DNA of 64,000 bases from Nitrospinaceae bacterium (GTDB lineage: Bacteria; Nitrospinota; Nitrospinia; Nitrospinales; Nitrospinaceae). Location of the stretch: contig OZ250172.1 of assembly GCA_965237905.1 (NCBI GenBank), positions 960,001-1,024,000 on the forward strand, written 5' to 3'. A program made the position numbers and the translations under genes. This document shows positions 21,001-53,073 of the stretch, piece after piece (the stretch's first letter is position 1; each line of letters starts with the position of its first letter). The notes under the pieces are model-generated. The model did no database searches and was not told where the DNA came from. It was given only the letters and a program-made list of their open reading frames with translations.

Positions 21001-24000
21001 GGCGTGCTGTCAATATAAGCGCGGGTGTCGATATTCACTACCTGGACTGACACCGAGCCAGCTACGCCGGTAGTCCCTGCGATGCCTGCGTTCGCGGCGA
21101 TAGAAAGGATATCTTCATTGGAGTTCGCGTCTATTTCAATGTTCCCGTCCGATTCCACCTGGGCACCACTGCCGATATAGGCCCGCGTATCCTTGTCGAT
21201 CACGGCTACGTCCAGCCCCAGTCCCACGCCGGCGGCATCGGTCGACAGACCCAGCGCCCCTGCGACGCTCACTATATCTGTGGTACTGGTCGCTTGAACT
21301 ATCACCGATCCTTTTGGTGAGATGATGGCATCCTTATTAATCATGGAACCATCATCGATATAGGCTGTTGTTGTCAGATCGAAAACGTTGACGACCACCG
21401 CCGCCCCGACGCCCGTTTGCCCTTGGGTGGCTCCACCGGCAATAGCCATCGACATGAAATCGACGATATCAGTTTCCCCTAATAGTGTTTGGGTGAAAGT
21501 GATGGGAGCCAAATCTGTCTCGGCGGTAACGGACATGGTATCCGCTGCGTCGGCATTCCCTGCGATATACGCGGTTGTCATGGGATCCCCGCCCACACCT
21601 TCAAGAACTGTCACAGCCACAGATGCGCCGACCGCAGTCCCATCGGTGGAGAATCCTCCACCCGCGGCAAGAGTCTGAAGACCGATATCAGTCTCAGCAT
21701 CGACTTTCAATGTACTCTCAGACTTGAGGATCGATCCGTCGCGAGCTGAGGCCTCCGTAGAGAAGTCGACCACATTTATGCCGACAGATCCGGCTACGCC
21801 AACATCACTCTTTCCACCACTGGCAGAAGCCCCCCAGGCAATGAATTCGTTCCGCTCAGCACCGGTAGTAAGGGCCTCAATGATGATTCCGTTGCCCTCG
21901 ACCAGGGATCCAGAGTCGATGAATGCCCTATTCTCGACAGTCGCCACGTTCAGGGCGACAGCGGCGGCGACATTGATCGATCCGCTCTCAAGACTAATGG
22001 AGCCTCCCAAGGCCTTTGCAGTTGCATCCACTTCGGCCATGGCGCTCACCCGAACCGCACCTGCCGTATCAATGTCTGCACCGCTTATGATCGAAGCTGT
22101 GTTGGATACGTCGACAACATTCACCGCCACAGCAGCCGCCACACCAACGCTACTCGAACTATTGCCTGACTCAGAGTCCGCTGTGGCGCTGGCGCTGGTG
22201 ATCTCACCGCCTGCACTGGGCAAGGTTCGACCAAGGCCTCCATCATTGGTAAGTGAATTGTCGTTAACCTGCCCGTCCGCTTCATCATCGGAGTTTCGAG
22301 CGGACGAAGAGTTCCCGCCGGCACCTGCTTTTGCGATCACCTCACTTGTAATTGCCGATTCCGCAAGAATATCAATGGCACCGCTAGCGCTAATACTCCT
22401 GGCCACGATGGCATCTATCGTTTCATCAACAATATTGATGCCTACTGAAGCCCCCACTCCAACACTGTCTGCAGCCACATCAGCGCCAACAGTCGTTGTT
22501 ATCGAGCTGTTGTGGAGTGCATTCACCCCCACCGTGCCGGAGGCATCCAGAGCAGTGGTCCCGGTCCCGATCCGGGCTGTGGTGTCATTATCGACAATGG
22601 AGATCGCAGTAGACGGGGAGATGGCGATACTGCCGTCAGCCGCACCCGCCTCGGTGGTCGTAGTCACGGTGTGCCCCGCTGTCGTCGACACCAACACGTC
22701 ACCCGCCCCCGTGAGCCCGGCACCGTCCATTATCTCGGCCCGCGTGATGTTTATATCAAGTATATTCAGCGCCACTGACGCGCCGACACCCACATCACCA
22801 CCGGTCGCCGAGGTAGCCTCTACCGTGTGATCCGTGGTGTTCTCCGCCTGAAGGGTAACCGCACCACCCCCCGCATCAACATCCGCACCCGTCTGGATCA
22901 CTGCCTCAGTTCGGTTGTCCACATTATTCAGAGCAAAGGCGCCCGCAACCCCTACACTACTGTCCGGAGCGCCGGCGCCAGAGGTTGCGGTAGCCCCAAA
23001 CTTGTGCGTGGTGTCCCCTGTGGTGTTCATCAAGGCCCCGACATCTACACCCGTGGCTTCCACCGTACTCGAAGCACCGATCATCGCTTCGGTGGTCAGG
23101 CCCACCACATTGATCGCCACCGCCGCACCGATGCCCACACCCGCGACGGCACTACTGTCAGCGGTAGCTGACGCATCGGTATCACCGGCTGTCTGTACCG
23201 TAAGCTGGCCCGAGGCACTGCCTGACCCCGTAGCCCCATACACATTGTCCGAAAGTTTCGCGCGCGTCTCGGAGTCAGCCAGGTTCACCGCGACTGCAGC
23301 CGCAACACCCACATCCTCGCTACCACCGGCCCCATCACTGGATGTCGCATCAGGAGCATCATTCCCGGTACTCCCCTCCGTGGTTAGCGCGCGGCCGTGG
23401 CCCATTTGATTATCCGCTTCGGTATTGGCATCGTTCCCACCACTGCTCGGAGCTCCCTTGGCAGCCGCTTTCGCCCTCGTACTCGTCAGGGCCGCAGAAT
23501 GCGCCGTGATGGTCACAGCCCCACCAGCCCAAAGCTCACGCGTGAGTTCCGCCATCACGATGTCGTTGGCATCCGTAACCGCAACCGCTACACCCACCCC
23601 GACTTCACCGACCACACTGCCATCGGAGAGTGTCGTCACTGAACTGCTGTGGAGTGCATTCACCCCCACCGTGCCGGAGGCATCCAGAGCAGTAGTTCCG
23701 ATCCCGATCCGGGCTATGGTGTCATTATCGACAATGGCGATCGCAGCCGACGGGGAGATGGAGACATTGCCGCCAGTCGCACCCGCCTTGGTGGTCGTAG
23801 TCACGGTGTGCCCCGCTGTCGCCGACACCAACACGTCACCCGCTCCCGTGAGCCCGGCACCGTCCATTATCTCGGCCCGCGTGATGTTCGTATCAAGTAT
23901 ATTCAGCGCCACTGACGCGCCGACACCCACATCACCACCGGTCGCCGAGGTAGCCACGGCCGTGTGATTCGTGATGTTCTCCGCCTGAAGGGTGACCGCA

Positions 24001-27000
24001 CCACCCCCCGCATCAACATCCGCACCCGTCTGGATCACTGCCTCAGTTAGGTTGTCCACAAAATTCTGAGCATAGGCGCCCGCAACCCCTACACTACTGT
24101 CCTGAGCACCGGCGCCAGAGGTTGCTTTTGCAGTCAAGGTGTGCACAGCCGTCGTTTCATCTGAGCGGGACGCCATCGTTGCGCCCACCGTCAGAGCCTT
24201 GCTCTCGACGTTGATCAATGCGGGGATGTACGCCGTGTTGCTCACATCGGCAAGATTGATGGCAGCGGCTGCCCCAATACCAATATTGGTTTTTGTCACA
24301 CTGGCATCAGCGGTCGTAATGACATCGGCATTGGCGCTGGACTCGACCGCCAGACTGCCACCCACACTCAAGTCGCTCAGAACCGTCGCCGCAGAACTGA
24401 TATCCGCGATCGTTACGCCAACAGCAGCACCGATCCCAATCGGACCCCCACTGGAATCCGCATTCGGCGTTGTGGGTGAATCGTTGCCAGCGGCGCTTCC
24501 TGCATCGGCGGATTGCTCCTGCCCAAAAACCCGCTGTTTCCCTATTTGTGCATTCGCGCTACCCTCGTTATTCGCCTGCGACGAAGTCCCGGCGGCCGAC
24601 GCCTTCGCTATGCTCTCCCGACGGCCTACCACACGCGAAGAAATCTTCGATTCACCCGTACCCGTTGCCACGGTAGACCGCCAAACGGTCGCACCGACCA
24701 AATCCTTACCCAAAGTCAACGCCAAGGCAGCGCCAACCCCTACGCTGGACGCACCAGTGATCGTACCATCGGCTGTGGTGCTGACCGTACCCTCGTCCTG
24801 GGCAGCTTCAACCGACAGCGTCCCGCTCAGCGCCATCGGTCCCGCAAAGGTTCCCACCCGGGAGAAGGTCTCGACGTCTGCTATCGTGATCGCGACCGCA
24901 CCGCCGACACTCACATTCGCACCCGACGCACCCGCCTCGGCCAGAGTCGTAATCTTTGGCGTGGTCGTGGCTTTCAGACTCAGGTCGCCGACATTGGTCA
25001 GCGTTGCATTGTCTTCGATTTCGGCTCGGGTCAAGAGATCGACGATGTTCAGCGCCACACCGGCCCCGACCCCGGCCGTCCCGCCTGCCCCTTCAGTCTT
25101 TGCTTTCGCCATCGCCTCGGCACTCACACTGGCTTCTGCAATCAGCGAGACATCTCCCCCAACCACCGTCGCACCGTCCGCAACATACGCTTCTGTGATA
25201 ACATCGATGCTGTTCAACGCAAACGATCCAGCCACACCCACGGTCTGAGCACCGGCGCCAGAGGTCGCTTTTGCAGTCAAGGTGTGCGCAGCCGTCGTTT
25301 CATCTGAGCGGGACGCCATCGTTGCGCCCACCGTCAGAGCCCGGCTCTCAACATTGATCAATGCGGGGATGTACGCCGTGTTGCTCACATCGGCAAGATT
25401 GATGGCAGCGGCTGCCCCAATACCAATACTGGTCTCTGTCGCACTGGCATCAGCGGTCGTGATGACATCGGCATTGGCGCTGGACTCGACTGTCAGGCTG
25501 CCACCCACACTCACGTCGCTCATGACCGTCGCCGCAGAACTGATATCCGCGATCGTTACGCCAACAGCAGCACCGACCCCAATCGGACCTTCACTGGAAC
25601 CCGCACCCGGCGTCTGGGCTGAACCGCTGCCCGCGGTGCTTCCTAAATTGACGACTTGCTGCTGCCCAAAAACCCGCTGTTTCCCTATCTGTGCATTCGC
25701 GCTACCCTCGTTATTCGCCTGCGACGAGGTTCCGGCGACCGACCCCTTCGCCGTGCTCTCCCGACGGCCTACCACACGCGAAGAAATCTTCGATTCACCC
25801 GTACCCGTTGCCACGGTAGACCGCCAAACGGTCGCACCGACCAAATCCTTACCCAAAGTCAATGCCAGGGCAGCACCAACCCCTACGCTGGACGCACCAG
25901 TGACCGTACCATCGGCTGTGGTACTGACCGTACCCTCGTCCTGGGCAGCTTCAACCAACAGCGTCCCGCTCAGCGCCATCGGTCCCACAAAGGTTCCTAC
26001 TCGAGCAAAGGTATCGACGTCCGCTATCGTGATCGCGACCGCACCGCCGATGGAGGTACTACCACCTGCGACTCCGGCTTCGGCCAATGTCGTGACCTTC
26101 GGTGTGGTCTTGGAATTCAGACTCAGGTCGCCGACATTGATCAGCGTTGCATTGTCTTCGATTTCAGCTCGGGTCAAGAGATCGACGATGCTTAATGCAA
26201 CTGAACCACCCACTCCCACAGATTCACCTGCCCCTTCAGTCTTTGCTTTCGCCGACGTGTCAACCGAAACGCTGCTATCAGCATTGATAGACACATTTTG
26301 ATCGCCGCTTGAAACTGTGCCGGAGATTAACGCTTCCGTTACGACCGTTACCGTATTGAGCGCAAATGAACCGGCTACACCGACATCACTCGCCCCTGCT
26401 CCCGAAACAGCCTTGGCAGAGAAAGCACTCTTTTCATCCTTGGCCAATGTGCTTGCACTTATTTCAACGCTGCCCGAATCAATCTGACCGCTAATGAGCG
26501 CTTTTGTTGATATATCCCCGACATTGATCGCCACACCGACGCCGACACCGTCGCCACCGCCACTTACTGTAGAACCGTCCGCATTTGCGGCAACTGCAAG
26601 CTTACTCTGCCCGGATACTGCGATTGGGTTCTCTACTGCTAAAAAGCCCGGTGGAGCGGTTGTCGGTGAATCGATCTGCGCTAATGTGTCGGCATTAACG
26701 ATATTAAGAGAAATGGCAGCCGCGATTTGAAGATCTCCATCCGAGGTTTTTCCTCCGTTATTCTGCACTTCCGATTGCGTTTCAGCACCGTTGCCGGTGG
26801 AACCACCCGGGGTGGCAATAGACTTGGTGTCCACAGACAAATCCGTCTGTGCATTTATTGCAATCTCAGAGGGTTGCGATGCAATCAATACCGAGTCTTC
26901 GATGCGGGCTGTCGTCTCAACATCAACAAAGGCAACAGCAACACTACCGCCAACGGAACCTGTAGACCCTGAAGGCATCCCATCAGCGGTCGTTTTAACG

Positions 27001-30000
27001 GATACCGTGTTAATGGCAGAGATTTCCAGTGACCCATTGGCCGAAAGTGTTGTGGACTCATCGACATACGTAAGGGCATCACTTGTGAGAAATGAAAACG
27101 CGAATGTTGCGTTTAAACCCAGATCATTGTCTGACTCGTCTGCTTCGGCCAGCGCGCTTACGTCAACATTCGACGTAGACATTATTTTCAGATCTTCAGA
27201 ACTGGTGATGGAAGCACCACCGGTGATCACCTGAGCGCTGGATTGAGCGATGGCAAGAGCTACGGCAAATCCCGGAAACTTAAGCTCGAAACCAAGATCC
27301 TCAGTATCAACCGGCAGAAAATGCTCTGAAATACCGGTTACAGTCGAAATCGCACTGAGGGTGACATTGGCACCACTGATCGAGGCGCCGGAGCTGTCCA
27401 CACTCGCCGTTGACGTACCCAACAGAATCTGCTTGATGGTTTCATAGTTGAGAGTTACGGAACTTCCCGGGGCGAACGCTAATATGCTGGCCAGGAGCTC
27501 AACAATGTCTTTTTGGCTGATATCGATGCGTGAAGCGGCATTGATATTGACATCCCCAAAAGTAACAATGCTTGAGCCGGGGTCGAAAAGAATTGTTTCG
27601 GCGAAAAGGAAAAGATTTTTGTCTCCGAGATCGATGTCTCCGACAACCGTTAACTCATCGACACGTTCCCCTAAATCAACAATCACATCCAGTTCAGCGG
27701 GCAAGGCCAACAAATCGATGATTTTTTCATGGTCAGGGCCAAGGAATGTGGGGGCGCTTATTGTGAGGAAATTTTCGGTGACTATCCCAAAGCCGTCTTC
27801 GATAATCGTTTGCGACAAAGTGGCAATATCATCAGCGGGGAGAGAGAGTATATCGTTTAGAAATCGGTCTCTATCGGCTTCGACGGACAAATTGTAATAG
27901 TTCAGTCCATGGACGGCCCATACGGTGTCGCTGAACAACAAGAGCGAGTCGAGCGTGAACAAATTGAACTCACCGAAACCGACATCGATCAAAACGGCCA
28001 AGTCTTTGATGAAGCCGAATTTCTGACTACCCGCTATGGACGGATCAAACGTCAATTTGACAGCGCCGGACGTGGCGGTAAATACACCCAACACATCCAA
28101 ATTCAGTTGATCCATACTTAAATCAAGGATCTCGGTGTTAAAATCATACATCAAATCCACATCGGTGCCAAAGGCGGTCAAAAACGGCACGCCAGCCACA
28201 TCCACATTCAAATCCAATCGAGTAAAATTCATCTCAAAGACTGCCGTGCCAATATCATAGGAAGCCACAAAATCGGAGGCTGTGGCAGTGATCACCCCTA
28301 AAATATCCAGCGTTACCGGATCGGCCGTTAAGCCTAATTTTGTCGAGAAGGGACCGCCGGCCGTGTAATCGATACGTTCAGCAAACACGGTCAGATCCGT
28401 GAGAGTTAAAAACGAACCAAGGTTAAAAGTACCAAAATTTTTCTCGATTTTTCCAAGGGTAAACCCGTTGTTTCGAACGCTGAGCGATCTTTGGACCTGC
28501 TGTAGACCGGCCCCCGCTGCTATGATTTCCAAATCTGGTATAAAGCTAACGTCAAGGGTAGTATCAAAAGGCAACAAGGTGACGGATAGGTCCTCTACTA
28601 TTCCCAAAACCTCTTGTTCGGGAGGAGCATTCGAATCGTAGGTGATCACCACAGTGCTGGCATTGGCGGTCAATAGATTCTCGACTGTGAAATCGACCTT
28701 ATCGGCCGTCAGTCTCAAGATATTTGTATCTAAATCGAATGATCCGCTGATTGCGTTTCCATCTAAATCCGAGTCCGTTATGGATGCGGTGATCGTGTCA
28801 AAAATATTGATGGACGCACCTGCCGCGTTCAGTTCAATTATTTGATTTCCGGACTCAAGCTTAAAATCAACACGGGGTTTGTCTATTTTCAGGAAGTCGC
28901 CAACAACAATCTCGTCCAAGGTAACGGATCCGGTTGCGGTGAAGGTTGCGGGAGTATCGTCGAAGACATTATCGTCAGTAATAGCGATTGTTGCTGTGGC
29001 TTCAATTTCAGTATTCCCTATCTCACTCGTGGCCACAATGGGAAGAAGAATATCCAAGGCGCCGGTGACCGTCACCGCAACGTCGACGTCATCATTGATG
29101 ATATCCGTTATGGTCAGTCTCCCGTCTTCGGGAGTCAGGTCCGTGAGCGCGACACCGGCAGTAAAGTTAAATTGCGCCAGCGCATCCTTTATTCCCAGCT
29201 CTATAACATCCAAATCGGCCGAAAAATTTAAATTACCGGCACCCACCCGCGCATTAAGCTCGATGAAACCCACTTCGATAAACATATCGTCCAAGGTGAG
29301 CGGGTTCGCGTCGGGATCCTCAAAAAAATCATTTAAATCCAGCCTCAAGGACAATTGCGCATCCAGATTTACGGAAAGGCCAAGATCAACCTTATTATCC
29401 GAGGAATCCATGAATGGGAGGAGGCCGGACAGGTCCAGCTGGTAATCTATGTTTTTACCCAGCGAAAAGTTAATATCGAACTCAACGATGTTTGATGTGG
29501 TCAACCCGCCGGACACCGTTATCCCGATGTTTGAGAGCCCCTCCTCGGCATCGGCCCACAACCTGGTAATGTAATCTTCTATTGTCTGGTTTATGCCAAA
29601 ATACGTTGGGTTTTCGTCGAACGACACTACCCGATCGAAGTAAGCCAGAATAGGTTGGCCAAATTGCAGAAAATCCCCAAGGTCAGGGCCGGGAGAGTTG
29701 TGCACAAACCCGTTTAGTGTCCCGAGTCTTCCCTTAAGTCCGCCAATGGCTTTATTTACAACGGGGTTTCCGGTGATCGTTCGCGAAACAATACCTAACT
29801 CATTGGCACCTTGCTGAATAACCTCTTTGGCAGCGGCCGGAAGCTCTACAGGTTTACTGGGCGCCCCGATTTCTATTTGGTAAAACGTTGTAAAAGCCTC
29901 ATCAACCTGGGCAATACCAGGGAATTGTTTGTTAAATTCATCAACGATGCGTTGATAGGCAATTTTGATGCGTACAACGGACGCTACGGGTTGTTGGTTG

Positions 30001-33000
30001 GGGTCGGTAACGGGCACTTTGGATTGGTTGGCAAAAGCCAATAGTTCAGCCAATACTTGTTTTTCGGCGTCATTCAGCGGACCGGTGGCAGCTTGGATCG
30101 CTGCCACGTCGTTAATTTGAATATCCACGTCCATCCCGGATTTATGTTCTCTATCGCCAGGGTCATGGTTAGGAAAGTCGTCTTTGGGGTCATTAGGGTC
30201 GTCGACGGTGTGCCCATTTTCGCTGATGGCCAGGATGGTCTGGGTTTCCAGAACGCTGGCCGTTGCCGTTTTAATCAGGTCAATCAACCAGCTAGTACCA
30301 TAACGTAATTTGGTCGGCGTAGTCCCATCACTCTCTACGGCAATGGCGAAATTGCCTTTACCGTCATCCACCAACTCCGTCCAACGGGGAGCATTGGCCG
30401 CGTTCAGCCACGCATGCGTGAGCAAGGTCCGGTCCACCCTGCCGTCTTCAGTCGCCGGATCTCCGGCGTCTGTTCCTGTCTGCACGTCATGGATCGCGGA
30501 CTGAAACAGTTTAATGGCCTCAATGGTTTTGGGTCCCACAACTCCATCCACTGCGAGCGGATTCCCATCTGCGTCCGGATACCCAAGATAGGCCAACCGT
30601 TGCTGGACCTGAAACACGTTCAAAACGAAATCCGTTCCGTTGGCACCGACACTATCCAGCTCATCCGGTAGATGATCTTCCATTTTAATTTCATTGAAAC
30701 CATCTGAAATATCAATGGCTATCGTCTGTGTCTCGTCATCAACCACCACGTTTAATAATGTGGTTAATCCTTTGAAATCGGTTTGCAGTGCTGTGACATC
30801 CGGAACAAAATACAGTTTACCGGAATCCTGAAACCAATCCTTCACTCCGACCAATTTTTCAAAGTCAACCAGAAAGGATTCGCTTGTGGTTAGAGACGCG
30901 ATCTCAGATGCATACGCATTGCCGCCAAGTCTGGCAACAGCGTGCAAGATACGCATGGTGGACTCAAGCTCTTCCAAGGTCAAAGTACCCGTATCGCCAT
31001 CAAAATTCTCAAAAATACCGTCTCTTGCAACGATTGCTGAATCGATCATATCTGTTGTTGATTCATCGGCCACATCCTGCCAAAAAACGCTGTCGTAACT
31101 GAGGCTGGCCCGGGCCGTTGCTTCCCAATCCGGTCCGCGTCCCATTAATTCCCCAAAGAAGATCCGGCCGCCGGGTACCGCAACCGGAGTTGTTGTATCT
31201 CCTGTAATGACGTCAAACGTTGCACCTGGGTAAACTTTCGAAAGATCCAACTCGATCACATCACCGACTTTCCCCTCATCAAACAAAGGGATAAATCGCA
31301 CATTGTCGATTGTTACGCTGGCAGCAATGCCATCTGCTTCGTTGACAACCGTATTTGGATCGTCAGCCCTATCCGTAAGCTCAAAAGTAAGATTATGCAC
31401 TTTGTTGAGCAGATCCTCGGGGATCAACACAAACTTCCCAGTCAGCCCATCATTGCTGGCGAGAGACAAATCAATTTCCGCAACGATATTTTTTCGTCCG
31501 AAGGAGTCCAGGCTTACCTTCAACAGATCAGTCGTCGGGTCTCCAAGCAAGTGCATATCGAAGGCAAGCATAACGTTGTCCGGAAAATACATCCAGTTAT
31601 GGGTGCGGTCTACATGTCCAGGGGTAAACTCTCCATCGGACAATAGAACAGAATGATCCGCCGGCGTTAAAATATCTCCTTCACCACCCCCGCCATAATG
31701 GGACCAGCCAGGTTGTTGAAAACCGTCCTCGTTGGAATTTGTAGGAGTTTCAGGGTTGAAATGCTGAAAATCGCCATTGACGATCTCAAAGGGAGTCCAG
31801 GACGGTTTCCACTTGGCTTTGGCAAGCCCATCTTTTGTCAGCGTTGAGAGATCGAAGTTTGCTATATCTGCGGTATCGATGCCTGCGATACCCGCGATGT
31901 TGGCTACGCCGGCGGCATCCGATATAAAACGCGGGGTATGCCCGTGATCTTGATTGGGAGGAGGAGGAAGAAGAGGAGGAGAGGGAGGAGGAGGATCAAA
32001 GAAATTATCCATTGGTGGCCTGTCTGCTTTACCTCCGGCCAATCGGCTTAACTGATAACCCTTTCCAGCAAAGTAAGTGCTGGCAGATTGAGTTACTCCA
32101 TTAACAACTTCAACAAAATCCAATGGAGCTTCAAACTCTTCATCCGAGGTGCTGGAGTCTCTATCCGTATCGCCCTCGAAATCACCGTCATTAAACGTCA
32201 GTCTGTCAGGGGCTATAGAACCCAGGTAATATCCGTTCCATGTCCAACTATGGTCCGAACCAGAGTCCGGCAATTCCCCGCCAGGGCCAGCATCCAGCCA
32301 TACGTTATAGGCTCCGGGAATGGGCCTACCCAAAGGATCAAAAACATCAGGTATTACGCTGCCGACTCGCTGTCCTCTGGTTTCATAATAAACATCGGCA
32401 AAATTGACGTTATCCCAGATCGTTACCCCATACCCACCTTCAGTTCCAGCAGGGTCTTGCGGCAGGCCCAGGTCGAATTGTCTTGTAGCTGCATCAATGG
32501 TGTCAGTAAACTCTTGCTCAAAGTCATGGGGATCCATGAAAGTGGCATGATCCACCTGAATGTCGTAAAAGGCTAGACGCTCGATAACCTCACTGTTAAC
32601 CGCGGCTCCGAAACTGTGGGCGATAAAATGCAGAGGAACTGTATTTCCTTTTTTACCGGTAGTAGGATCGATGATACCGAAGTTAACCAGTTGACTGAAC
32701 AAGGCATCAGCCGCGGTCTCTGCAAAACCTGGTGCTGCCTCATTAGACGCGCCAGCCCAGTCCCAAAGCAGAATCAGCTCACCCTTGGACGGGTCAGCCA
32801 GTGTGGGCAATGCTGAATCCTCAGGATCAAACCAAGCAATCCCATCGTCGCCATCAGGTATATCGAGATCAATCAACCAGCTTTGCCCCGGCAGGCCGTG
32901 GATGGCCTGAGCTATCGGAAGAAGCGAGTCCCCATCCGAGCCGAGCACTTGAAAGCCATGGGTGACAATCGTGACTCCGCTGAATTCGATCTTCAGTGCT

Positions 33001-33029
33001 TTGAGTAAAGTGCTTATATTAGGAAGCAT
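1..33029 (-). CDS. Giant RTX/adhesin-like multidomain exoprotein, main 3' segment (>11,000 aa, runs off the left edge)
   Basis: Not in the ORF track. The frame starting at ATG 33029 gives sensible protein at every spot I translated: 32.6 kb VPLHFIAHSFG, 30 kb QVLAELLAF, 20 kb YISRSAPVNARG, 7.2 kb DDVAPEDAFD, 0.4 kb HEIGHYLGLDH, 1-60 DVEPDEDVYALLDLEDEDF. The track lists no long closed minus-strand ORF here, which fits no in-frame stop. Not every codon was checked. Confidence 0.9.
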   Translation of the reverse strand, partial: MLPNISTLLKALKIEFSGVTIVTHGFQVLGSDGDSLLPIAQAIHGLPGQSWLIDLDIPDGDDGIAWFDPEDSALPTLADPSKGELILLWDWAGASNEAAPGFAETAADALFSQLVNFGIIDPTTGKKGNTVPLHFIAHSFGAAVNSEVIERLAFYDIQVDHATFMDPHDFEQEFTDTIDAATRQFDLGLPQDPAGTEGGYGVTIWDNVNFADVYYETRGQRVGSVIPDVFDPLGRPIPGAYNVWLDAGPGGELPDSGSDHSWTWNGYYLGSIAPDRLTFNDGDFEGDTDRDSSTSDEEFEAPLDFVEVVNGVTQSASTYFAGKGYQLSRLAGGKADRPPMDNFFDPPPPSPPLLPPPPNQDHGHTPRFISDAAGVANIAGIAGIDTADIANFDLSTLTKDGLAKAKWKPSWTPFEIVNGDFQHFNPETPTNSNEDGFQQPGWSHYGGGGEGDILTPADHSVLLSDGEFTPGHVDRTHNWMYFPDNVMLAFDMHLLGDPTTDLLKVSLDSFGRKNIVAEIDLSLASNDGLTGKFVLIPEDLLNKVHNLTFELTDRADDPNTVVNEADGIAASVTIDNVRFIPLFDEGKVGDVIELDLSKVYPGATFDVITGDTTTPVAVPGGRIFFGELMGRGPDWEATARASLSYDSVFWQDVADESTTDMIDSAIVARDGIFENFDGDTGTLTLEELESTMRILHAVARLGGNAYASEIASLTTSESFLVDFEKLVGVKDWFQDSGKLYFVPDVTALQTDFKGLTTLLNVVVDDETQTIAIDISDGFNEIKMEDHLPDELDSVGANGTDFVLNVFQVQQRLAYLGYPDADGNPLAVDGVVGPKTIEAIKLFQSAIHDVQTGTDAGDPATEDGRVDRTLLTHAWLNAANAPRWTELVDDGKGNFAIAVESDGTTPTKLRYGTSWLIDLIKTATASVLETQTILAISENGHTVDDPNDPKDDFPNHDPGDREHKSGMDVDIQINDVAAIQAATGPLNDAEKQVLAELLAFANQSKVPVTDPNQQPVASVVRIKIAYQRIVDEFNKQFPGIAQVDEAFTTFYQIEIGAPSKPVELPAAAKEVIQQGANELGIVSRTITGNPVVNKAIGGLKGRLGTLNGFVHNSPGPDLGDFLQFGQPILAYFDRVVSFDENPTYFGINQTIEDYITRLWADAEEGLSNIGITVSGGLTTSNIVEFDINFSLGKNIDYQLDLSGLLPFMDSSDNKVDLGLSVNLDAQLSLRLDLNDFFEDPDANPLTLDDMFIEVGFIELNARVGAGNLNFSADLDVIELGIKDALAQFNFTAGVALTDLTPEDGRLTITDIINDDVDVAVTVTGALDILLPIVATSEIGNTEIEATATIAITDDNVFDDTPATFTATGSVTLDEIVVGDFLKIDKPRVDFKLESGNQIIELNAAGASINIFDTITASITDSDLDGNAISGSFDLDTNILRLTADKVDFTVENLLTANASTVVITYDSNAPPEQEVLGIVEDLSVTLLPFDTTLDVSFIPDLEIIAAGAGLQQVQRSLSVRNNGFTLGKIEKNFGTFNLGSFLTLTDLTVFAERIDYTAGGPFSTKLGLTADPVTLDILGVITATASDFVASYDIGTAVFEMNFTRLDLNVDVAGVPFLTAFGTDVDLMYDFNTEILDLSMDQLNLDVLGVFTATSGAVKLTFDPSIAGSQKFGFIKDLAVLIDVGFGEFNLFTLDSLLLFSDTVWAVHGLNYYNLSVEADRDRFLNDILSLPADDIATLSQTIIEDGFGIVTENFLTISAPTFLGPDHEKIIDLLALPAELDVIVDLGERVDELTVVGDIDLGDKNLFLFAETILFDPGSSIVTFGDVNINAASRIDISQKDIVELLASILAFAPGSSVTLNYETIKQILLGTSTASVDSSGASISGANVTLSAISTVTGISEHFLPVDTEDLGFELKFPGFAVALAIAQSSAQVITGGASITSSEDLKIMSTSNVDVSALAEADESDNDLGLNATFAFSFLTSDALTYVDESTTLSANGSLEISAINTVSVKTTADGMPSGSTGSVGGSVAVAFVDVETTARIEDSVLIASQPSEIAINAQTDLSVDTKSIATPGGSTGNGAETQSEVQNNGGKTSDGDLQIAAAISLNIVNADTLAQIDSPTTAPPGFLAVENPIAVSGQSKLAVAANADGSTVSGGGDGVGVGVAINVGDISTKALISGQIDSGSVEISASTLAKDEKSAFSAKAVSGAGASDVGVAGSFALNTVTVVTEALISGTVSSGDQNVSINADSSVSVDTSAKAKTEGAGESVGVGGSVALSIVDLLTRAEIEDNATLINVGDLSLNSKTTPKVTTLAEAGVAGGSTSIGGAVAITIADVDTFARVGTFVGPMALSGTLLVEAAQDEGTVSTTADGTVTGASSVGVGAALALTLGKDLVGATVWRSTVATGTGESKISSRVVGRRESTAKGSVAGTSSQANNEGSANAQIGKQRVFGQQQVVNLGSTAGSGSAQTPGAGSSEGPIGVGAAVGVTIADISSAATVMSDVSVGGSLTVESSANADVITTADASATETSIGIGAAAAINLADVSNTAYIPALINVESRALTVGATMASRSDETTAAHTLTAKATSGAGAQTVGVAGSFALNSIDVITEAYVADGATVVGGDVSLIAEASVSAEAMAKAKTEGAGGTAGVGAGVALNIVDLLTRAEIEDNATLTNVGDLSLKATTTPKITTLAEAGASGANVSVGGAVAITIADVETFSRVGTFAGPMALSGTLSVEAAQDEGTVSTTADGTITGASSVGVGAALALTLGKDLVGATVWRSTVATGTGESKISSRVVGRRESIAKASAAGTSSQANNEGSANAQIGKQRVFGQEQSADAGSAAGNDSPTTPNADSSGGPIGIGAAVGVTIADISSAATVLSDLSVGGSLAVESSANADVITTADASVTKTNIGIGAAAAINLADVSNTAYIPALINVESKALTVGATMASRSDETTAVHTLTAKATSGAGAQDSSVGVAGAYAQNFVDNLTEAVIQTGADVDAGGGAVTLQAENITNHTAVATSATGGDVGVGASVALNILDTNITRAEIMDGAGLTGAGDVLVSATAGHTVTTTTKAGATGGNVSISPSAAIAIVDNDTIARIGIGTTALDASGTVGVNALHSSSVTTLSDGSVVGEVGVGVAVAVTDANDIVMAELTRELWAGGAVTITAHSAALTSTRAKAAAKGAPSSGGNDANTEADNQMGHGRALTTEGSTGNDAPDATSSDGAGGSEDVGVAAAVAVNLADSETRAKLSDNVYGATGSGSASGQLTVQTAGDTDASATADSSAVAGVGIGAAVAINVVGLTTEAMIGASSTVEATGVDVGALMNTTGDTTHKFGATATSGAGAPDSSVGVAGAFALNNVDNRTEAVIQTGADVDAGGGAVTLQAENTTDHTVEATSATGGDVGVGASVALNILDINITRAEIMDGAGLTGAGDVLVSTTAGHTVTTTTEAGAADGSIAISPSTAISIVDNDTTARIGTGTTALDASGTVGVNALHNSSITTTVGADVAADSVGVGASVGINIVDETIDAIVARSISASGAIDILAESAITSEVIAKAGAGGNSSSARNSDDEADGQVNDNSLTNDGGLGRTLPSAGGEITSASATADSESGNSSSSVGVAAAVAVNVVDVSNTASIISGADIDTAGAVRVSAMAEVDATAKALGGSISLESGSINVAAAVALNVATVENRAFIDSGSLVEGNGIIIEALTTGAERNEFIAWGASASGGKSDVGVAGSVGINVVDFSTEASARDGSILKSESTLKVDAETDIGLQTLAAGGGFSTDGTAVGASVAVTVLEGVGGDPMTTAYIAGNADAADTMSVTAETDLAPITFTQTLLGETDIVDFMSMAIAGGATQGQTGVGAAVVVNVFDLTTTAYIDDGSMINKDAIISPKGSVIVQATSTTDIVSVAGALGLSTDAAGVGLGLDVAVIDKDTRAYIGSGAQVESDGNIEIDANSNEDILSIAANAGIAGTTGVAGSVSVQVVNIDTRAYIDSTPLAMTTVHAEGDIAISADNTADITMIAGAVGVGDSTGVGASNTTLVKTNTIVASIGQGADIVSMGAQGVSVLATSSEDVLTTVVAGASSSSVAVAGAVTVITLNTTTQAFITGATVVADANVKVSADSEAIFKTIIGNIAISADSVGVGASLSTVIHTDRTEAFIDDASVVTAKGLGGTVSVLTGERSGDTKVLEDMHGVAVVANSYEDLLTITAGAANGAEVGVDGSIIVNNLDETTLAYIGQGTQINLPGMGAGVNQDVLVRASDETEIIAVAGGIQFGGSAGVGAGLDFGTITKNTQAYISRSAPVNARGDIVIDANSEEDITSVAANFGASNLAGIAFSGSEYTLDTSTRAYIDSAPLAITTVHAEGDIAISADGKADISMTAGSVGIGDSAGIGAANTTLIKTDTVEAFVGQNADIVSMGAQGLSVLATSSEDILSIAAAGAGSTTAGIAGSATINLLTENTYAYIGDHAVINATSADDSAPNVTVKASSNTDVLGFAGAASLSSSVAVGAGVDTAVINKDTQAYIAAAANVTADGNVIVEALSTEDLASFSVAGAASGSVGVIISAAVYHLTTTTRAYIGNDGPLGLSSVDITNVHADGSVIVSADTSTEMDLIAGNLVGAGSVGVGAAGAVAIVDKTTEAFIGSLAQVTGKGQQPAVSARTGVFGDAVFIPTPELQGEVGETITFNEIPGTDVDGNLNPDTITRDVGNWETDGFAIGDTISIEGSSNAGSYLIADITDAGQTLVLDPSQVLTTETIAVDDNALVIVRLSSADGEVDPVGESANSDASFTGDRTIDPGRADLQGVAITATNRDDLETYGVSLAGSGTAAVAIGGSSNIIETNTRAFIGAQAQINADLSGASTGQDVLVAAANDFYHLGFGAGVALAGTGTGAPGVEISLIKNNVDAYIGSGALVQANNDVIVSAVGSEDFLVITAGVAVGGVVGIAGGVGYLSIENTTKAHIDSNATVYAEGDVLVTASDTTNIDAIAGAVGVGIAAAGAAGSVGTVNITKDTQAFIGVDAIINANGHGTGFSDIYSGDISGSNFDTETMNGVAVQAHSSEDVFTLAVAGGVGLYFGLAGGLLTTLIDSDTTASIGDRALINTDRSSKFQRLPNETLTFTENPGTDVDGNLINPDTITRSIGSWETDGFAIGDTISVDGEVSPNSGTYTIADIIDGGQTLVLEIDQELFNETITVGEEAPVITRVTADPSPTFVRSTDETLTFVESTDTSPDTITRDAGSWENDGFRIGDTISVSGQNSPNAGTHKIADITDGGQTLVLESAGVLVSETIAIGEDAPTIVRFTTDIGGSADQGVNVSATNFTSVETFAGALAGGVAGLAGGIDMGNIKNDTSASIGENAEVLASVDVDVNALSIKELDTLSISGALGIVGLAGSINIWSIGTAFDSTYENNQETDGNGDKVLQSASASEGDGSGEGSNTGEGEADGQSAGATSLLADSLNVGSTAPAQTVSAMGDASARLNADGSGAGDLEAKIGEVVATPPGVSATVGSGTMIVALDDVEVRAIEKMTVDVVAGAFAVGIVGFGAGIVVLNVRSTTIASISGEVMAGDDVLVRAQLIDDVEGLGFAGAFGYVGLGAAVTVIKDNSSQFASIGDGGAIHIADTVTIEALDSRTIKGDAAQIAGGLAAIGASYVKITVSGSTHAFLGNGVQIGQLFDNAVNDVVIRADSDIDPTIKAFGLAGGVGAGTINFGFVVMRPDVQAFIGDFSRVTVNRDVLVRADFDTKARADGKGVAVGGFAAGFMVANINLGGGDGVEASVRQGSVVDARFLQIGAISRDDLEADTFAGKGGVVAISGSFSGIDSDLAAVAKIGNDVQVNTDALEISSFHEQDVDSRSDSVTIAAGSGTGAVTDNKVTSKANVDIGTGVTVNTGSLRITAINELTKNKFEGGNLRSETAALSGAIDFLSSTTDIGTGADKFQAVVNIGTGSHLIANGVLEVATRINVEAIDSVLVEGISGVSGNSFAKSTVNINSLANVAVDGAILENLGGDVQLSAKSEVVNVASANLFVASGLSGSASGDANAITRAENRVDVHNSQIKGNDVNLFTGKGGALLSGNLMFSFANATITTASLLPSITRPKLRAEIDENNLVNVTGNTQLEAFQDVNLVANPDLFPFAKTDGQALSLSLIPYGMSIPDTGVVKGVSKVNIDPTATVKAGSNNKIIVQIKSFEFQGNPVIPGIDTSLLGTELTTQQKIDFGLPAELENVPYEFAALGADNIVLSINQGTIVRVVAGSTNGIEGNYYQYRPVTDHSSDAVLLEQENYFDTSRWRNLGVLTADEILIEETTGNPIYDSDITLQLGAALENKFYVVKPVQMEDLRLTYANVGNLLIEEYEKILGWIVNHDGDDEALARYAVQLLAVETALIKLGLFATEEVEGEEKLGINAELDTLFLELPNIEASPGSVFIESPDSASDAFGDIVGTQILAGAGAQISIFNETPFSMIVNDTFIRDNKRITIDDNGNFQLLEPGNVYLNNQPVFPSDLTPEELEAFKAEIEFLNLQNKTITIVQNLLGLITDYDTEGFLLPSVEQDLFIRGDVINEDGTIEIQNAEASISVSGEIRGEQVVIGAAGDFTLNAEDWLHTNRDPRQYIDYDRVREQVFNSAKPDFPAPPDPDSTFRFGSLNDVLATTATLVREVFVDNDGGNGGGFFGSFTFGSVYKYVGAGAASVLLNAVDYAGDPNWKLLEPGDDGFVDFSSSSPKNNRYLSNFGTGFLNFFLRQNPVVQVTPLATLADAINEDASDVRSPDDLNVRKDPTSASKILSQGRISITARFLNVNGLIQSGTDVIEMDIAADFVGPTQTTNFRDSSGNFLPGISFGADGVPIDGYWDAQRQAIVLEELVPQGGEIIIAGQIMSTGNGQLKVASGFTGVDIDNNSPFQLVVNRIDTTEDRVGKITIIDTDLLEKTVYELSGGQITETHFNGTAIVNPPPGELAEEDYEDGFIPRIDYIQEGVDIQHAIGQDIKYQLEDGLRYVWTEGQERTNVDRRVYQEKSFGLLPGIQVDFLVKDRGWQSRTIVDRDNDFLLESESLEEKNGDGIPGYVEDGDAYTIALRRINDITVDIDTGALVKDMRPDVGTGLIYRYIPQLKPIDVELNTIDFPSNPDWEELSPQEQIDLDFEESDPGKNEFLSDFINVRVTQFGPHVSGGGYLRTLTVTTIIRIETGIKDFFTHTLEADHPIDIVFTGGAAVPDITIESLGDIFIQGHLEAPDSGNVHLTSGGSISQAEGVGIFSAATNLNAGVVFNSPASVADPDATLVLVVVGNTGIPVNALSTGDIIINVFSEDNDHNSVVIGQVTSIFGNVTVNARHGVTMFDSSSFIRGERVELRVDEGAIGTASQAIRIDSNTHGFGGVAARALGDINIVEILSDPTEISDDPQIPDDLNLLQPEAIPDAEASIHSLTGDVRLETLSGSILDNFTELFNLSGSIDADNLNPLQQQLVNDNTFTLDAFRFPVSPGLYKTLFPLAEFLGEEQETSAPETLNIKGANVTLIAGGAEAEAQIGRVEAITTIVFKQTSPDQPFDYSALSTAEKELLSRATANDIVGVNYELFRYIGTADLDVNLIHVEVIPDVTLVKDLNTGTVYRYIGATAIQISLRDVDYANDVNWVDASDMSHPSWIDTSNINAIPNVTLVNHEGVVFEYIGAETEIFLSQTDFTDITLWMEATLVDPVTFEQNPVENRYFSNFKNIDPTIFVQDVDNDRFLSDYLNQDRFSDTSLWQKITPDFVTSVDSTGLVNTGNTVLVEFDADVYGVYEFLGTSGSINFANQDYNDGTRWQKLVAEHATDDNTVATIMAGDLVLNKFVVESLTLELSDDVDFEATSSLTVDAFDGVSLETPADVMIQHIIAGGDVRLESQGNITDLHDTGTLAAISSFGNLTLGASGFIQGDDGTSPFRIQLSPSSALRAIAGGEVDIVQVAEDVTINSIFQEISDLFVSRVDAGGSATIEVIEGNMIVGRVSSDVSVDLIADDSILDAFEDSGAPIVNVFTGNVTSPATGDVTLTAGGDIGIASNFLDVEIRLGDLDAFAGRDIFIHSPRTLNIRELKSDSGDVALDVEGDALIDQITALMGTVAVRADLSIVDRRSDSTSNIDANTIVLNAEAGTVGTSNPNPFEINSSHLIGGTVTVEAFGEIFLIETDDGLIETDDDMVINTIVSETDDVTLETVNGSILDGNLLFALGIEGLTLADFNITAPLDPEDLNISAININMTAQNGSIGTSGDAIEIDSSPILSTGHLNATATSDIYLTEVNGELNVGLVNSDQGDVGLNVRDSADTGEDLLMDPNARIFAVLGSVFLNAGDNAIFDLGSLVVSADEIILHGDIGDTGNNDADPTFIHILNTLDTDAIEIAGNREDDLIILEPEALTGYTHVLGDIDGLPGGRDTIILDQLPSITNSHDRPGDGVDGLVRDSVDLDGRGGYDTYIINTTGGLTDYRVNVLDTGLPNDGADTLTINGSDNSDIFLLRRVTEIIGQVADAPAFVTLIKGTLDEVLANSPDRPIEQERINYDENINGRLIVNSLGGDDYFASDDTTAIVTLDGGAGKDTFQIGQLYKTARVADDVAPEDAFDTVEATRGFLSRGVSLPMTIYGGSGEDQFSIYSNKAPLRLEGNDGNDTFVIRAFALVTGDGFTTEETTEIDTGLGEDTIQYNINAPVAIDGGGGFDTVVVVGTEFSDNFAITEDGVFGAGLFVRFDNIEAVQVDGVEGDDDFFVLSTPSGVVTTVIGGLGSDQFNVGSDVTQTIISRDPEGLSGVINHSISSTTDADYDQLLAPGIDLTIGTADQGKVIITESDGKTVVRESGMGALDDYTVRLASAPTENVYVTVSAARSASEDEDQGGDSILVSSDGTTFEEAVVLTFTSDNWMDDQIVSVKGIDDGFVEGERIYVVSHAMKSDDLFFNSNDQEFAISDVEVTVIDDDQAGLVFEQTGNKTQILEGNLMAPGNITGISDSYTLQLTRPPVAGETVTVSLDFDSTQFVLTNLMGDARFDTTTNTIVFDSTNMNPVEIGVEAVDDGVRENTLRLAITHNVTSTDTGFVVDGAPELEVIVVDNDTAGLLVTETDGSTLLFKADAANPAVSDSYDIRLTSAPVGEVVVSILTDGQTLISSDDIRFSGATGSLPPTVTFNASNWFDAVTLEVSVDPDFVPAPGAEFIKKFPVQPHTLAGIAGPLLIEGFFLEGANRSLVNPVMLPGESNIFPADGDVQDFTGTGESGAVDTMTVATADLEVARVRLGLATFSELVGLTLEISTGPGQGRFWEINAIDSVTTPGTSVLTLQNPTLLESAGFGDTVVPTSASTFAITDQSENFFVDENLQVDRTNIFNDGSVSDDTGVLDAVTVVNDVVSLAAPINLSGFGMGDNLTTDLGTPGDPSDDITFPGGITVDDLEVLEILLGTGNDLLTINDTLRNPALHGGLTLVHGGGNTETAPGVRGGDTIIINGGGGSASPLVVYGDTSQDGNRYRGQSGIVEQDSEENPLAIQFGNFGDDIIDASASILGLTIYGGLGDDAITGSQGGDHLAGGSGNDLFFGQDGVDHIYGDSGVNVDPLTNLLTIPTVNTSSFPNHDPLVVGDDVIHGGGGADIVFGDHGIITEVVPALKVFSTAYFQIAKIESAVLNEGGEDTIYGDSGADILIGGANSINTLGDRIDGGTDDDLIFGDNVVLEHRPETALVRDASPRVRALTGSLIYDENGDVLADRVTGFADPRISAPWAEFEITGLDHTKALQDADGTNFGNDYIAGGADDDTIFGQLGDDVIQGDGSIDGLVEGGIPVAASREVLPGGLTGALLVTASFEADSDGDDYIEGNAGTDVIFGNLGQDDIVGGNSNFFSLDTDEERPDAGDLLFGGAGIRINRNEYVEDRSTGDGSGAVDIALVDRHSRDSDMILGDNGNIFRLLDASGAPLSFNYDDGYGEQIVVRAAELLDYTPGGPDWDPGLIDNGAGDELHGESGDDFIYAQVGDDVVFGEGQDDDLFGGWGRDWISGGTGDDGVLGDDGRIFTSRNGTAEPLYGIAATIQEHIDTPGNVQQADIHVTGELKKSVDLTPFNPVAGGNELSDPQYADDIIYGGLGSDWQHGGSGDDAMSGAEALPEYYDLPFNPGDVLRYSMVTGEFAEYDEFEPRLEIFYGAQDGQDVVFNLPGGGQYILEANSPFILNFNEEEGIFRPAGATGGNQSIEYGPVHDDGDDKLFGDLGNDWIVGGTGRDNLYGGWGDDLHNADDDHTTNTILGVGQNDAPDTHPTYEDRAYGGAGRDRLIGNTGGDRLIDWAGEFNSYIVPFAPFGMGTVSRTLQPQLAEFLYALSESDGADFTRGGDPARNGEPDGELGLVRQQDFAWQDQTGAPDDPQPGNIPGGPRDVLRSASFDGTQGIIGTGFFVDSGVFEVSGGELKVAAESLDGDAVAVFHVGDQLPGYFELQASVKFDKATGGWDANAYVIFDYQNESDFKFVGIDDKINKLVMGHRDASGWHVDEQGVVQGGVRPDKWYNMLVAINGVNVTLVVDNTEVFQHTYAPRIVDDYSYGLNWGLVGMGSDNARGSFDNVRVQILPPQVTLDDTEDFEDGVPDLFTMGMIGAWDVVGGRYTVDPGLSLGMNLLDLGPDNLNFNSYLELSAAVNTVDQAGFIFDRYGDESFKYMAIDATTDQLIIGHYTKNSGWAEDATVTTLIEVNTDYTLGLTLKGTTVSATLNAAGNGGFQAIVGHVFNASTVDGHFGLMALGGNANFDDVRVKTDDRAFEVPEAALMAAESAGESTATSTLTHGQLEKIFDAAVTRWTGVGYIDQARLATLDDLEFYIADMAGLALGRSSGNRIFIDPNAAGHGWFVDETPDANEEFLLSSNGWVAKPNSAAYGKMDLLTAVSHEIGHYLGLDHDDATSDTSVMSDTLQSGSRYVGEESSYRHMGEDTLLSSAFFAAGSAFLEETLGLTGESEDEEDGSEETLALVFDEESGEFSESEATSDDDEWYIDNGDVEPDEDVYALLDLEDEDF
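270..560 (-). other. Metzincin (matrixin-like) Zn-protease domain within the giant protein
   Basis: AAGHGWFVDETP...MDLLTAVSHEIGHYLGLDHDDATSDTSVM: HExxHxxGxxH at 351-383 plus a downstream Met-turn candidate. Confidence 0.8.
830..1800 (-). other. Concanavalin-A/LamG-like beta-sandwich region (probably two domains)
   Basis: Beta-rich aromatic sequence (NAYVIFDYQ...WYNMLVAING...GLVGMGSDNARGSFDNVRV); fold inferred only. Confidence 0.45.
2150..7950 (-). repeat. RTX/hemolysin-type Ca-binding repeats with Calx-beta-like modules (~5600-6600)
   Basis: Dense GGxGxD/GDxG motifs; modules of the type DSYTLQLTRPP...VEAVDDG. Confidence 0.7.
14500..27500 (-). repeat. Ala/Gly/Val/Ser-rich beta-solenoid-like repeats (filamentous adhesin type)
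   Basis: Recurrent GVGASVAxN / AxI / small-residue motifs over ~13 kb. Confidence 0.6.
22500..26400 (-). repeat. Near-identical ~1.14-kb tandem duplications inside the giant gene
   Basis: Matching text at 22512 vs 23649 (offset 1137), and at 24139 vs 25282 and 24513 vs 25656 (offset 1143); both offsets are multiples of 3. Confidence 0.85.
29850..30660 (-). other. Peptidoglycan-binding domain plus MepA-like (LAS/M74-type) peptidase-like domain
   Basis: VFQVQQRLAYLGYPDADGNPLAVDGVVGPKTIEAIKLFQ (PG_binding_1 pattern), then RYGTSWLIDLI...ILAIS...HKSGMDVDI (motif at 30120-30146). Confidence 0.7.
32200..33000 (-). other. Alpha/beta-hydrolase (lipase/esterase-like) domain within the giant protein
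   Basis: VTIVTHGFQ; LLWDWAG; nucleophile elbow HFIAHSFG (32607-32621); TFMDPHD; candidate catalytic His in GSDHS (~32250). Confidence 0.8.
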
Positions 33030-36000
33030 CCAATTGCTCAACTGAATCTACGTCGAACCATGAGGGTGCGCTAGCCGCAACCACGCTGGGAAGTTCACCG
33101 GTAATCAAGGTGTCTGTGCCAAAACCACCATTGACGGTTAAGTTATTTATATCAAAAGTCGGATCAATACTTTCAATGACGATGGTGTCGTCCCCGAAGC
33201 CAGCATTAATGACTAAATTGTGGGTAGCAAATGTGATCTCTTCGAAGCTTTTAGTATCACTTCCAATGGTCATCATTCCCGGAGTTTCATGATTCAAAAG
33301 GCGGATATGATCATCCTTAATAAGGAGTTTTCCTGAAAATGTTATCGTATCGGTTGGAGTACCCGAAAGCGTAATGGGTTCCATTCCGGTGAATGTCAAA
33401 AGCATACCGTCAAGAAGCATGGTTCCGGAATCTGGCCCTAAAGCGTCGTAAGCAACCTCGCTATAACTTCCACTAAAAATAATACTGTCAAACCCTCCGT
33501 CACCGCCTGCCACGACTCCGCTGAGACTGCCTGTAGCGGTGAACGTGAACGTATCCTCATTGTCGGCCGCGCCGGTCAGGTTTTCGATGCCGCTGAAGAA
33601 CGTCACTCCGGCCACGTTCCCGGAGTCGGCGCCATCGATCGTCCAGTCGGTATCGGCCGCGGGACCGGACAACGTGTCACTGCCTGCGCCGCCAACAACC
33701 GTTTCAGCCTCTTTGACAGTAAGATCGATAAACACACCGGAAATTGTGGCGCTGTAATCCAACACATCCGATCCGGCGTTACCGAAAATTGTGCCCGCAA
33801 TATCCGCTCCCTCACTAAACGTGAAGCTGTCGGCATCGGCACCGCCCTGCAGATTCTCAATGCCGGAGAAACTGGTGCCGCCCATCGTACCGGAGTTGAG
33901 GCCCGTGATGTTCCAGCTATTCGCCGTATCGGCACCGGCTAACGTGTCACTGCCACCGCCACCTGTTACTGAGTCCACCGCACTACCGGTACTGAACGTA
34001 AAACTGTCGGCACCTGCGCCGCCACCCAGATTCTCGATGCTGGAGAAACTCACGCCACCCACGGTACCTGTGCTCACTCCCGTGATGTTCCAGGCATTCG
34101 CACCATCGGCACCGGTTAAGGTATCGTTACCGCTGCCACCGATCACGTTGACGATATTGGCTACCGTACCGGTCACACCCGTTGCTGTATTCGTATTCAG
34201 ATCGACGTTGATGCCGGTGGTGTTCGCTGAATGATCGAGCCGGGAGGTGCCCGCGCCGGTGATCGATCCGGTGACCGCCGCGCCGTCCGCAAACACGTAA
34301 GTGTTGGTCGTATTTCCGCCGACGAGGTGTTCAACACCGGTAAATATTTCGCTGTTAAGGGTCCCGGCATCCAGCCCGGTGATATTCCAGATATTGTCGA
34401 TGTCCTCCGCCAGTAGGGTATCGATACCCAGGCCGCCGATAATACTGTCCACACCTGCTTCGCCGATCAGCGTGTCGTCACCCCCGCCGCCGGAAAGCGC
34501 GTCATTGCTGGCCCCACCAATCAGCAGGTTGGCCCCGCCATCACCGGTCAAGATGTCCGCACCTGCGCTACCGGTCACGTCCTCGAAGCCACCAATCCCG
34601 CCCGTGCCGCTTGCGGTTCCAACAGACAGATCCACCGAAACACCCGTCAGCCAAGCACTGTAATCCAGCGTATCACTACCGAGCCCGGCAGAAATCACGC
34701 CACCGATACCCGCACCTTCGGCAAATGCAAAAAGATCGCTCAACACGCCGCCTGTAAGGTTTTCAATTTCACTGAATGCGATGCCTGCAAGATCACCTGC
34801 ATTCGCTCCGGTAATGCTCCAGGTATTTGCGCTGTCGGAACCGATCAGCGTGTCACTGCCTACACCGCCACCCGCCACCGAATCCACCGAACTCAGAGCA
34901 GCGAACGTAAAACTGTCGGCACCCGTGCCGCCTGCGAGATTCTCGATGTTGGAGAAACTAGTGCTGCCAACCGTACCCGTATTGACACCCGTGATGCTCC
35001 AGGCATTGGCACTGTCGGCACCGGTCAAGGTGTCGTTACCCGCACCACCGATGACGCTCACGACATTGGCTACCGTACCCGTCACACCGGTTGCCGTATT
35101 CGTATTGAGATTGACACTGATGCCGGTGGTGTTTGCAGAATGATCGAGCACGTTGCTGCCGCCGGTGATGTTACCGGCAATCGATGCGCCGTCTTCAAAG
35201 GTGTAGGTATTGGTTCCGGTACCACCCACAATGTTCTCGGAACCGGCGATGTTGCTCACCGTATCAACGCCGTCAGAAACACTCAGTGTCCCGTCAGCTT
35301 GCACCGTGATATTTAAGTTGGAGGTGATGTTGGAGAAGTCGAGTGTATCCGTGCCGGCGCCCGTGTCGAGCAACACTGCACTCAACGCACCGACGATCGT
35401 ATCGTTACCCGCTCCGGTAACGACATCCTCAATATCAGAGATCGTACCCGCATAACTCGCCGTGCCGGCACTGAGATTAACCGTCACACCCGTCGTGTCT
35501 GAGGATAGATCAAGCGTGTCACTACCATCGCCACCGGTTACTGAATCCACTGAACTTAAAGCAGCGAACGTAAAACTGTCGGCTCCCGTGCCGCCTGCGA
35601 GATTCTCGATACCACTGAAACTGACTCCACTCACACTGCCCGCATTGACGCCCGTGATGTTCCACGCATTGGCACTGTCGGCACCGGTTAACGTGTCGGA
35701 GCCTGTGCCGCCAATCACGTTGACGATATTGGAAACCGTACCGGTCACGCCCGTTGCCGTATTCGTATTGAGGTTGACACTGATACCGGTGGTGTTGGCG
35801 GAATAATCGAGCACATTACTGCCACCGGTGATATTACCGGTGATGGAGGCGCCGTCTTCGAAGATATACGTATTCGTCCCCGTACCACCGACGATGTTCT
35901 CAGCACCGGCGATGTTGTTGACGGTATCCACACCATCGGTCACGCTGGTCGTACCATCAACATGCACCGTGATATTTAAATTGGAAGCAACATTCGAGAA

Positions 36001-50121: not shown

Positions 50122-50142
50122 ATTTTGAAAGTTAGCGATTTC

Positions 50143-51351: not shown

Positions 51352-51440
51352 TATTTAGAATAATTTCAAAGGTTTTAGAATACCTATAATCACAAAATCT
51401 ATTTTTTTGAATATTTTTATGATATTTTTTACTAGTTGCT

Positions 51441-51469
51441 TTGAATTTTATAGTCACATCTGATATTAT
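51441..51469 (+). promoter_or_regulatory. Sigma70-type promoter candidate for the xis-rep unit
   Basis: TTGAAT-N17-TATTAT. Confidence 0.5.
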
Positions 51470-51623
51470 GACTCTCTAGTATTAAATTGAAGTATTAGCA
51501 CACCCAAGGCTCCGCCCACCGGAGCGACTTTAATCGCATGGATGCATTGTGGCTTCTCCAGCCACTCATTGGCCGGACTTCTCTACTTTAGTCCGGTAAA
51601 AACTTTTTCTATGCGAGTAAAAA

Positions 51624-53026: not shown

Positions 53027-53073
53027 TGCCATTAATTTCAATTTTAAACTAATATTTTTAATGATTAAGGTTT

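Follow-up and report, generated by a model that had tools for sequence, protein, structure and literature searches.

Organization of the giant gene and its surroundings

The window, i.e. the whole 64,000-nucleotide stretch of DNA that was analysed, carried on its minus strand a giant gene split by two frameshifts into three reading frames (Table 1), which summed to ~14,200 residues. The LEPR-XLL motif of ORF1 was recognized by NF012209 with 25.7 bits (cut-off 17). RTX repeats (PF00353) scored over the cut-off in ORF1, ORF2 and ORF3, and LktA tandem repeats were additionally found in ORF3. The module described here comprised ORF3 residues 794-1061, and no continuous frame led to it from the LEPR-XLL motif.

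Table 1. Features of the giant gene, its module and the adjacent gene, with positions in the window
Feature	Position	Strand	Remarks
DUF3467 gene, upstream of the giant gene	42966..43325	-	second copy follows the other giant gene of the genome
ORF1, N-terminal piece	38037..42476	-	1479 aa; LEPR-XLL motif and RTX repeats; out of frame with ORF2
ORF2, middle piece of the same gene	33019..38040	-	1673 aa; RTX repeats; out of frame with ORF3
ORF3, host frame of the module	1..33041	-	11,040 codons; stop lies 81 bases outside the window
Alpha/beta-hydrolase-like domain, upstream in ORF3	32214..33020	-	AHSFG elbow, DPHD, DHSW; label is a motif reading
PG_binding_1-type domain and conserved WLNAANAPRW linker	30387..30662	-	ORF3 residues ~794-885; Pfam core 808-849 (30620-30495)
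MepA/M74-like LAS domain, degenerate active site	29859..30302	-	residues 914-1061
H959, spare His, only candidate substitute ligand	30165..30167	-	acidic low-confidence loop, pLDDT < 50
Retained H-x6-D half of the zinc site: H966, D973 (MepA H113, D120)	30123..30146	-	residue-level register versus MepA
Lost H-x-x-H-x-H slot: F1050, F1053, Q1055 (MepA H206, H209, H211)	29877..29894	-	model strand E260-266

The ORF2/ORF3 junction lay inside the interval 27000-34929, which was reproduced by Logan contigs of runs X1 and X2 with no other letters and no gaps. The ORF1/ORF2 junction was bridged over 37912-38143 by an X2 contig (record 14), also with no difference. Since the contigs matched in this way, both frameshifts and the segment were considered real in the sequenced DNA, the two runs representing one sample that is possibly the assembly's own. 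At the frameshift sites (33019-33041 and 38037-38050) the start codon of the next frame overlapped the preceding stop or end. Hence, translation of ORF3 could restart at the ATG overlapping the end of ORF2, and translational coupling across both frameshifts is possible. The giant gene may be a pseudogene in this strain.

The alpha/beta-hydrolase-like domain matched no Pfam family over 32214-33020, and its Ser/Asp/His set was apparently intact. It was 37-46% identical to P0002, P0038 and P0039, all of which carry the module. Towards the C-terminus of ORF3, an HExxHxxGxxH stretch (306-452, minus strand) contained an apparently intact zincin motif, HEIGHYLGLDH, with Peptidase_M10 staying under the cut-off. 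Two further minus-strand genes, 45679-49815 (a 1378-aa membrane-like protein) and 43696-44535 (279 aa), belonged to no Pfam or NCBIfam family. The region 50125-64000 was a low-GC island (about 40-48%) with an integrase, a Rep_trans-like gene, an HTH gene, a Sel1 protein and type I restriction-modification genes, among which an Mrr-type gene was inserted. No tRNA was found within the window.

A second LEPR-XLL giant gene was located at G000:C1:2363968-2394763; it, too, was split, into 8033 and 2271 codons. The N-terminus was 95% identical to that of the window gene and the last 835 bases were 97% identical at the DNA level, while the middle differed; by these alignments, it looks as if the cores had been swapped while the ends stayed common to both genes. 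The module gave no match in this paralogous gene. DUF3467 and HlyD-like genes came after it. Nine HlyD-like matches were present in the genome, none over the type I cut-off, and three of them directly followed the second giant gene. In type I export, the periplasm is bypassed. Judging from the RTX repeats and the HlyD-like genes, the chain is likely exported past the periplasm and would thus be unlikely to act on the wall of its own cell.

Domain composition and fold of the module

A peptidoglycan-binding domain had been claimed in the preliminary description, and PF01471 indeed matched residues 808-849 with 27.9 bits (cut-off 23, E 2.7e-6); the domain had the three-helix PGBD fold. The sequences VFQVQQRLAYLG (30617-30582) and DGVVGPKTIEAIKLFQ (30548-30501), as well as DEAFTTFYQIEIGAP (29903-29859) at the end of the LAS domain, were read in the minus-strand frame from 33041. 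The same frame contained all three motifs reported earlier (YGT..LI..I, I.AIS and HKSGMDVDI), namely as YGTSWLIDLI at 30302-30273, ILAISE from 30236 and HKSGMDVDI ending at 30120 (all minus strand).

The Pfam scan of the LAS domain returned no family, PF03411 included, and PF03411 appeared under the cut-off in six of the nine relatives scanned (best 20.2 bits, cut-off 25). The likeness to MepA was instead derived from relatives, the ESM Atlas, hhalign (95%) and fold searches. The model of the module (pLDDT 83.4, pTM 0.83) was built from aligned relatives, most of them intact; it retrieved MepA first, followed by Hedgehog, VanX and LdcB lower in the lists, in agreement with the LAS/MepA-like fold proposed before.

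Active site

In the hhalign register, H966 and D973 were kept and F1053 and Q1055 occupied the HxH positions, so the earlier observation that H-x6-D is retained and the downstream HxH is lost was reproduced. We take H209 of MepA to be the general base and H211 to be the third zinc ligand. It is well supported by the alignments that the MepA-like domain is a pseudo-peptidase, predicted to be inactive, having lost the His of the general base and that of one zinc ligand. The signature of LAS enzymes is given in the available passages of PMC8416486 as HXXXD and HXH.

Completion of the zinc site by an alternative His pair is unlikely, as the histidines of the segment were 790, 851, 876, 944, 959 and 966 only. 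H944 was rejected as a substitute ligand because relatives have Phe there, and E1057 as a new base because it matches the family consensus E. No open HxH alternative existed in the other two frames over 29781-30260. An assembly error was rejected as the source of the His loss by the contig matches over 27000-34929.

H959 might help to bind a metal. It was kept in P0004 and, together with H966 and D973, in close relatives; more distant decayed copies had no counterpart of it. Among the matches listed from runs X3, X4, X5 and X7, H966 and D973 showed no amino-acid change, and the sole change in REHKSGMDVDI among the matches listed was that of the R in X7. The general-base position (1053) read F or S in the query and its close relatives, F1053S being found in two close relatives among the sediment-run matches listed. 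None of the sediment-run matches listed had a His restored in the slot.

Intact and decayed copies

The representative search retrieved 4810 proteins at E ≤ 0.001. Both motifs were covered by 145 of the best 150 proteins (149 domains) and not by the other five. When homologues were aligned for HxH retention, a check suggested in the preliminary description, all four key residues (H/D/H/H) were kept in 145 of these 149 domains; H206 was retained in 149, H209 in 148 and H211 in 147, in a set that favours intact copies, since it comprises the best-ranked matches to a profile that was itself mostly intact. Of 12 representatives scanned, 4 intact relatives were fused to amidase, muramidase or VanY domains. 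Six relatives were long (1.9-6.0 kaa) and carried RTX repeats or a LEPR-like motif, and the site was intact in only one of the seven long RTX/LEPR-XLL-type carriers. The HxxHxH slot read HGGHFH in P0038 (intact), HLYGLH in P0035, RPFVLH in P0036, AADSAH in P0037, AENSYY in P0002, ASGPLR in P0039, FTTFYQ in the query and FTTSYQ in the close fragment P0004. P0005 and P0018 were short proteins with an intact site and a LEPR-like motif recognized by eye and unlisted by NCBIfam.

Three proteins of 3.4-3.9 kaa (P0040, P0141 and P0181) had 4-5 matches to the module each. In a cyanobacterial cluster (L001:4677-9710), an intact copy of the module was surrounded by several genes that appear to be wall-related.

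A tree of 20 domains was calculated with the HxxHxH columns removed. Nine rows (the six long relatives, the query, P0004 and P0005) grouped together (100/99). The intact P0038 was sister to the decayed P0039 (97/93), and a clade supported at 99/96 united the intact P0005 with four decayed rows, the query among them. A single decayed clade was rejected by the AU test (p-AU 0.03). Because intact copies were nested among decayed ones, at least three independent His losses are likely, given no regain.

Among the seven decayed rows, the equivalent of H209 was lost in 7, H206 in 6, H211 in 4, D120 in 2 and H113 in none, and the slot replacements differed between the decayed lineages. Of 53 non-catalytic LAS columns, 12-19 were kept in decayed rows (18 in the query) and 15 and 19 in the intact sisters. 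The query kept 23 of 27 binding-domain columns, comparable to the intact P0005; other decayed copies kept only 9-16 of 23-26, and the intact P0038 kept 12 of 23. The PG_binding_1 score of the query was 27.9 bits versus 19.4 for the intact P0005. As judged from these columns, the retention of the fold and the binding domain in the query is the pattern of a pseudo-enzyme.

Divergence and distribution of close relatives

Relatives at about 85-95% identity were found in sediment runs, and 5 of 5 net indels in close relatives were frame-keeping among the matches listed. For the LAS domain, comparison of the window with the sediment relatives away from indels gave synonymous to non-synonymous codons of 4:12 and 3:11; the ratio was 1:6 for the binding domain, and other parts of ORF3 gave 4:8, all from small, tool-selected lists of mixed contigs (40 of 41 and 40 of 2348 rows). 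With a neutral expectation of 0.25 for the silent share, the short-range substitutions look neutral. Such divergence and the upstream frameshifts count against a selected wall-binding role. Also counted against a selected function was the 69% identity of P0004 over the domain, compared with 92% identity of P0034, encoded on an equally long contig, to the window gene 45679-49815. Neither the module nor the domains upstream of it were detected in any of 60 related genomes, 43 of which were at least 90% complete, and the LEPR motif was detected in 2 of 30. The presence of the module was patchy.

Proposed function and alternatives

The pseudo-peptidase of the preliminary description was thus upheld, and its suggested tether to the cell's own wall is unlikely for a module located ~3,950 residues into an RTX chain whose export probably bypasses the periplasm. 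We proposed, with about even confidence, that the PG_binding_1 domain and the disarmed MepA-like domain act together as a grip that holds exposed foreign peptidoglycan but does not cut it, the giant protein being a likely secreted adhesin. An active two-domain wall-hydrolase cassette, common in multi-enzyme lytic proteins, would have been captured by LEPR-XLL giant proteins. The general base would have been lost first (7/7 decayed rows) and the third ligand next (4/7), with the first ligand His staying in place (7/7). The chain would exit through the DUF3467/HlyD-like system encoded beside the second giant gene, never meeting the own wall. The binding domain would then fasten the cell to sacculi, to detritus or to Gram-positive neighbours, a task to which the vacant peptide groove may contribute. 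For such a grip to work in this strain, ORF3 would have to be translated despite the two upstream frameshifts. The host genome encodes ATP-citrate lyase, which suggests an autotroph, and adhesion therefore fits better than predation. A wider proposal is, in our estimate, unlikely: that LEPR-XLL/RTX giants repeatedly turn a captured MepA-like hydrolase into a peptidoglycan lectin, in which loss of the base comes first, part of the metal site persists and uncleaved cross-links are clamped in the empty groove, yielding a wall-recognising adhesin for non-predatory bacteria docking on cells or sacculi.

It is possible, at clearly less than even probability, that the cassette is a functionless, decaying passenger that is folded and in frame only since thousands of downstream residues need translation and export, its unselected catalytic residues being free to drift. 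The neutral-looking codon ratios, the different slot replacements of each lineage, the two real frameshifts, the patchy presence of the module and the weaker binding domains of other decayed copies would all be accounted for. However, the loss was ordered and non-random (H113 equivalent kept in 7/7, D120 in 5/7, H209 lost in 7/7), the binding domain of the query outscored that of the intact P0005 (27.9 versus 19.4 bits), and the fold columns were kept despite long branches.

An adaptor role, in which the dead LAS domain binds protein or a metal (H959/H966/D973) and positions or regulates the adjacent hydrolase-like domain, was judged improbable. The upstream domain was shared by three of the six long relatives but gave no match in the other three; REHKSGMDVDI showed no listed amino-acid change save the R in X7, yet H959 lies in the loop of pLDDT < 50 and is not common to the more distant decayed copies. 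Degenerate LytM factors and Drosophila Hedgehog offer precedents (PMC8416486, PMC4102407), but no partner candidate was identified here. Least probable, and very much so, is a still-active endopeptidase with a rearranged site, using H959 or Q1055 as the third ligand and an acidic loop residue as the base. LAS enzymes do vary, a confirmed one having Pro at one His position (PMC4102407), and close relatives keep H959, H966 and D973. Against such activity, all three C-terminal His were replaced where the best 150 of 4810 proteins keep them almost throughout (149, 148 and 147 of 149 domains), position 1053 varied between F and S, E1057 as the consensus residue provided no new base, and LytM structures with such substitutions contained no zinc (passages of PMC8416486).

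The module would add the MepA-like branch to the LAS pseudo-enzymes represented by M23 and Hedgehog, and the slots form a natural series that begins with an intact site and ends with a completely dead one (HGGHFH, HLYGLH, RPFVLH, AADSAH, FTTFYQ). Wall-hydrolase domains in giant genes, often taken as signs of predation, may be disarmed. Should the module turn out to be a passenger, it would be a tidy example of domain decay within a giant gene.

Comparison with known systems

E. coli MepA (M74, PF03411; PDB 1tzp, 1u10) shares the LAS fold, was the top structural match and has H-x6-D in register. The module differs by F/F/Q at H206/H209/H211, 11-12% identity, no PF03411 match, an N-terminal PG_binding_1 domain and its place in a giant RTX chain, whereas MepA is a small enzyme. 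The pairing of PGB1 with M74 is already known, PGB1 being among the binding domains found with M74 in the accessible part of PMC6403190. No report of inactive M74 domains was found in the literature searched; bioRxiv supplements, whose domain tables may list the module, lay outside the search. The Zn DD-peptidase of Streptomyces albus G (1lbu, M15) has the same order, PG_binding_1 and then a LAS domain, but the catalytic half of the module is nearer to MepA and its site is incomplete.

The degenerate LytM factors EnvC and NlpD (M23) and Drosophila Hedgehog are LAS-group proteins with lost zinc ligands and non-catalytic roles (passages of PMC8416486 and PMC4102407). They belong to other LAS families and act on their own as regulators or signals, with established roles, whereas the losses of the module recur inside giant secreted proteins and its role is predicted only. 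The LEPR-XLL giants (NF012209; Chlorobium chlorochromatii Cag_663/Cag_665) have the same motif, giant size and neighbouring type-I-like export genes (10.64898/2026.03.19.712371); the word peptidoglycan is absent from the main text of that source, and its available passages contain no wall-hydrolase relic. The giant proteins of Omnitrophota, proposed to digest prey walls (10.1101/2023.11.21.568195), likewise combine genes > 30 kb with a wall-related domain. They have many membrane helices and SecA-like domains, with MepA and LEPR unmentioned in the accessible text of the same source, whereas the hydrolase described here is disarmed and its host possesses ATP-citrate lyase.
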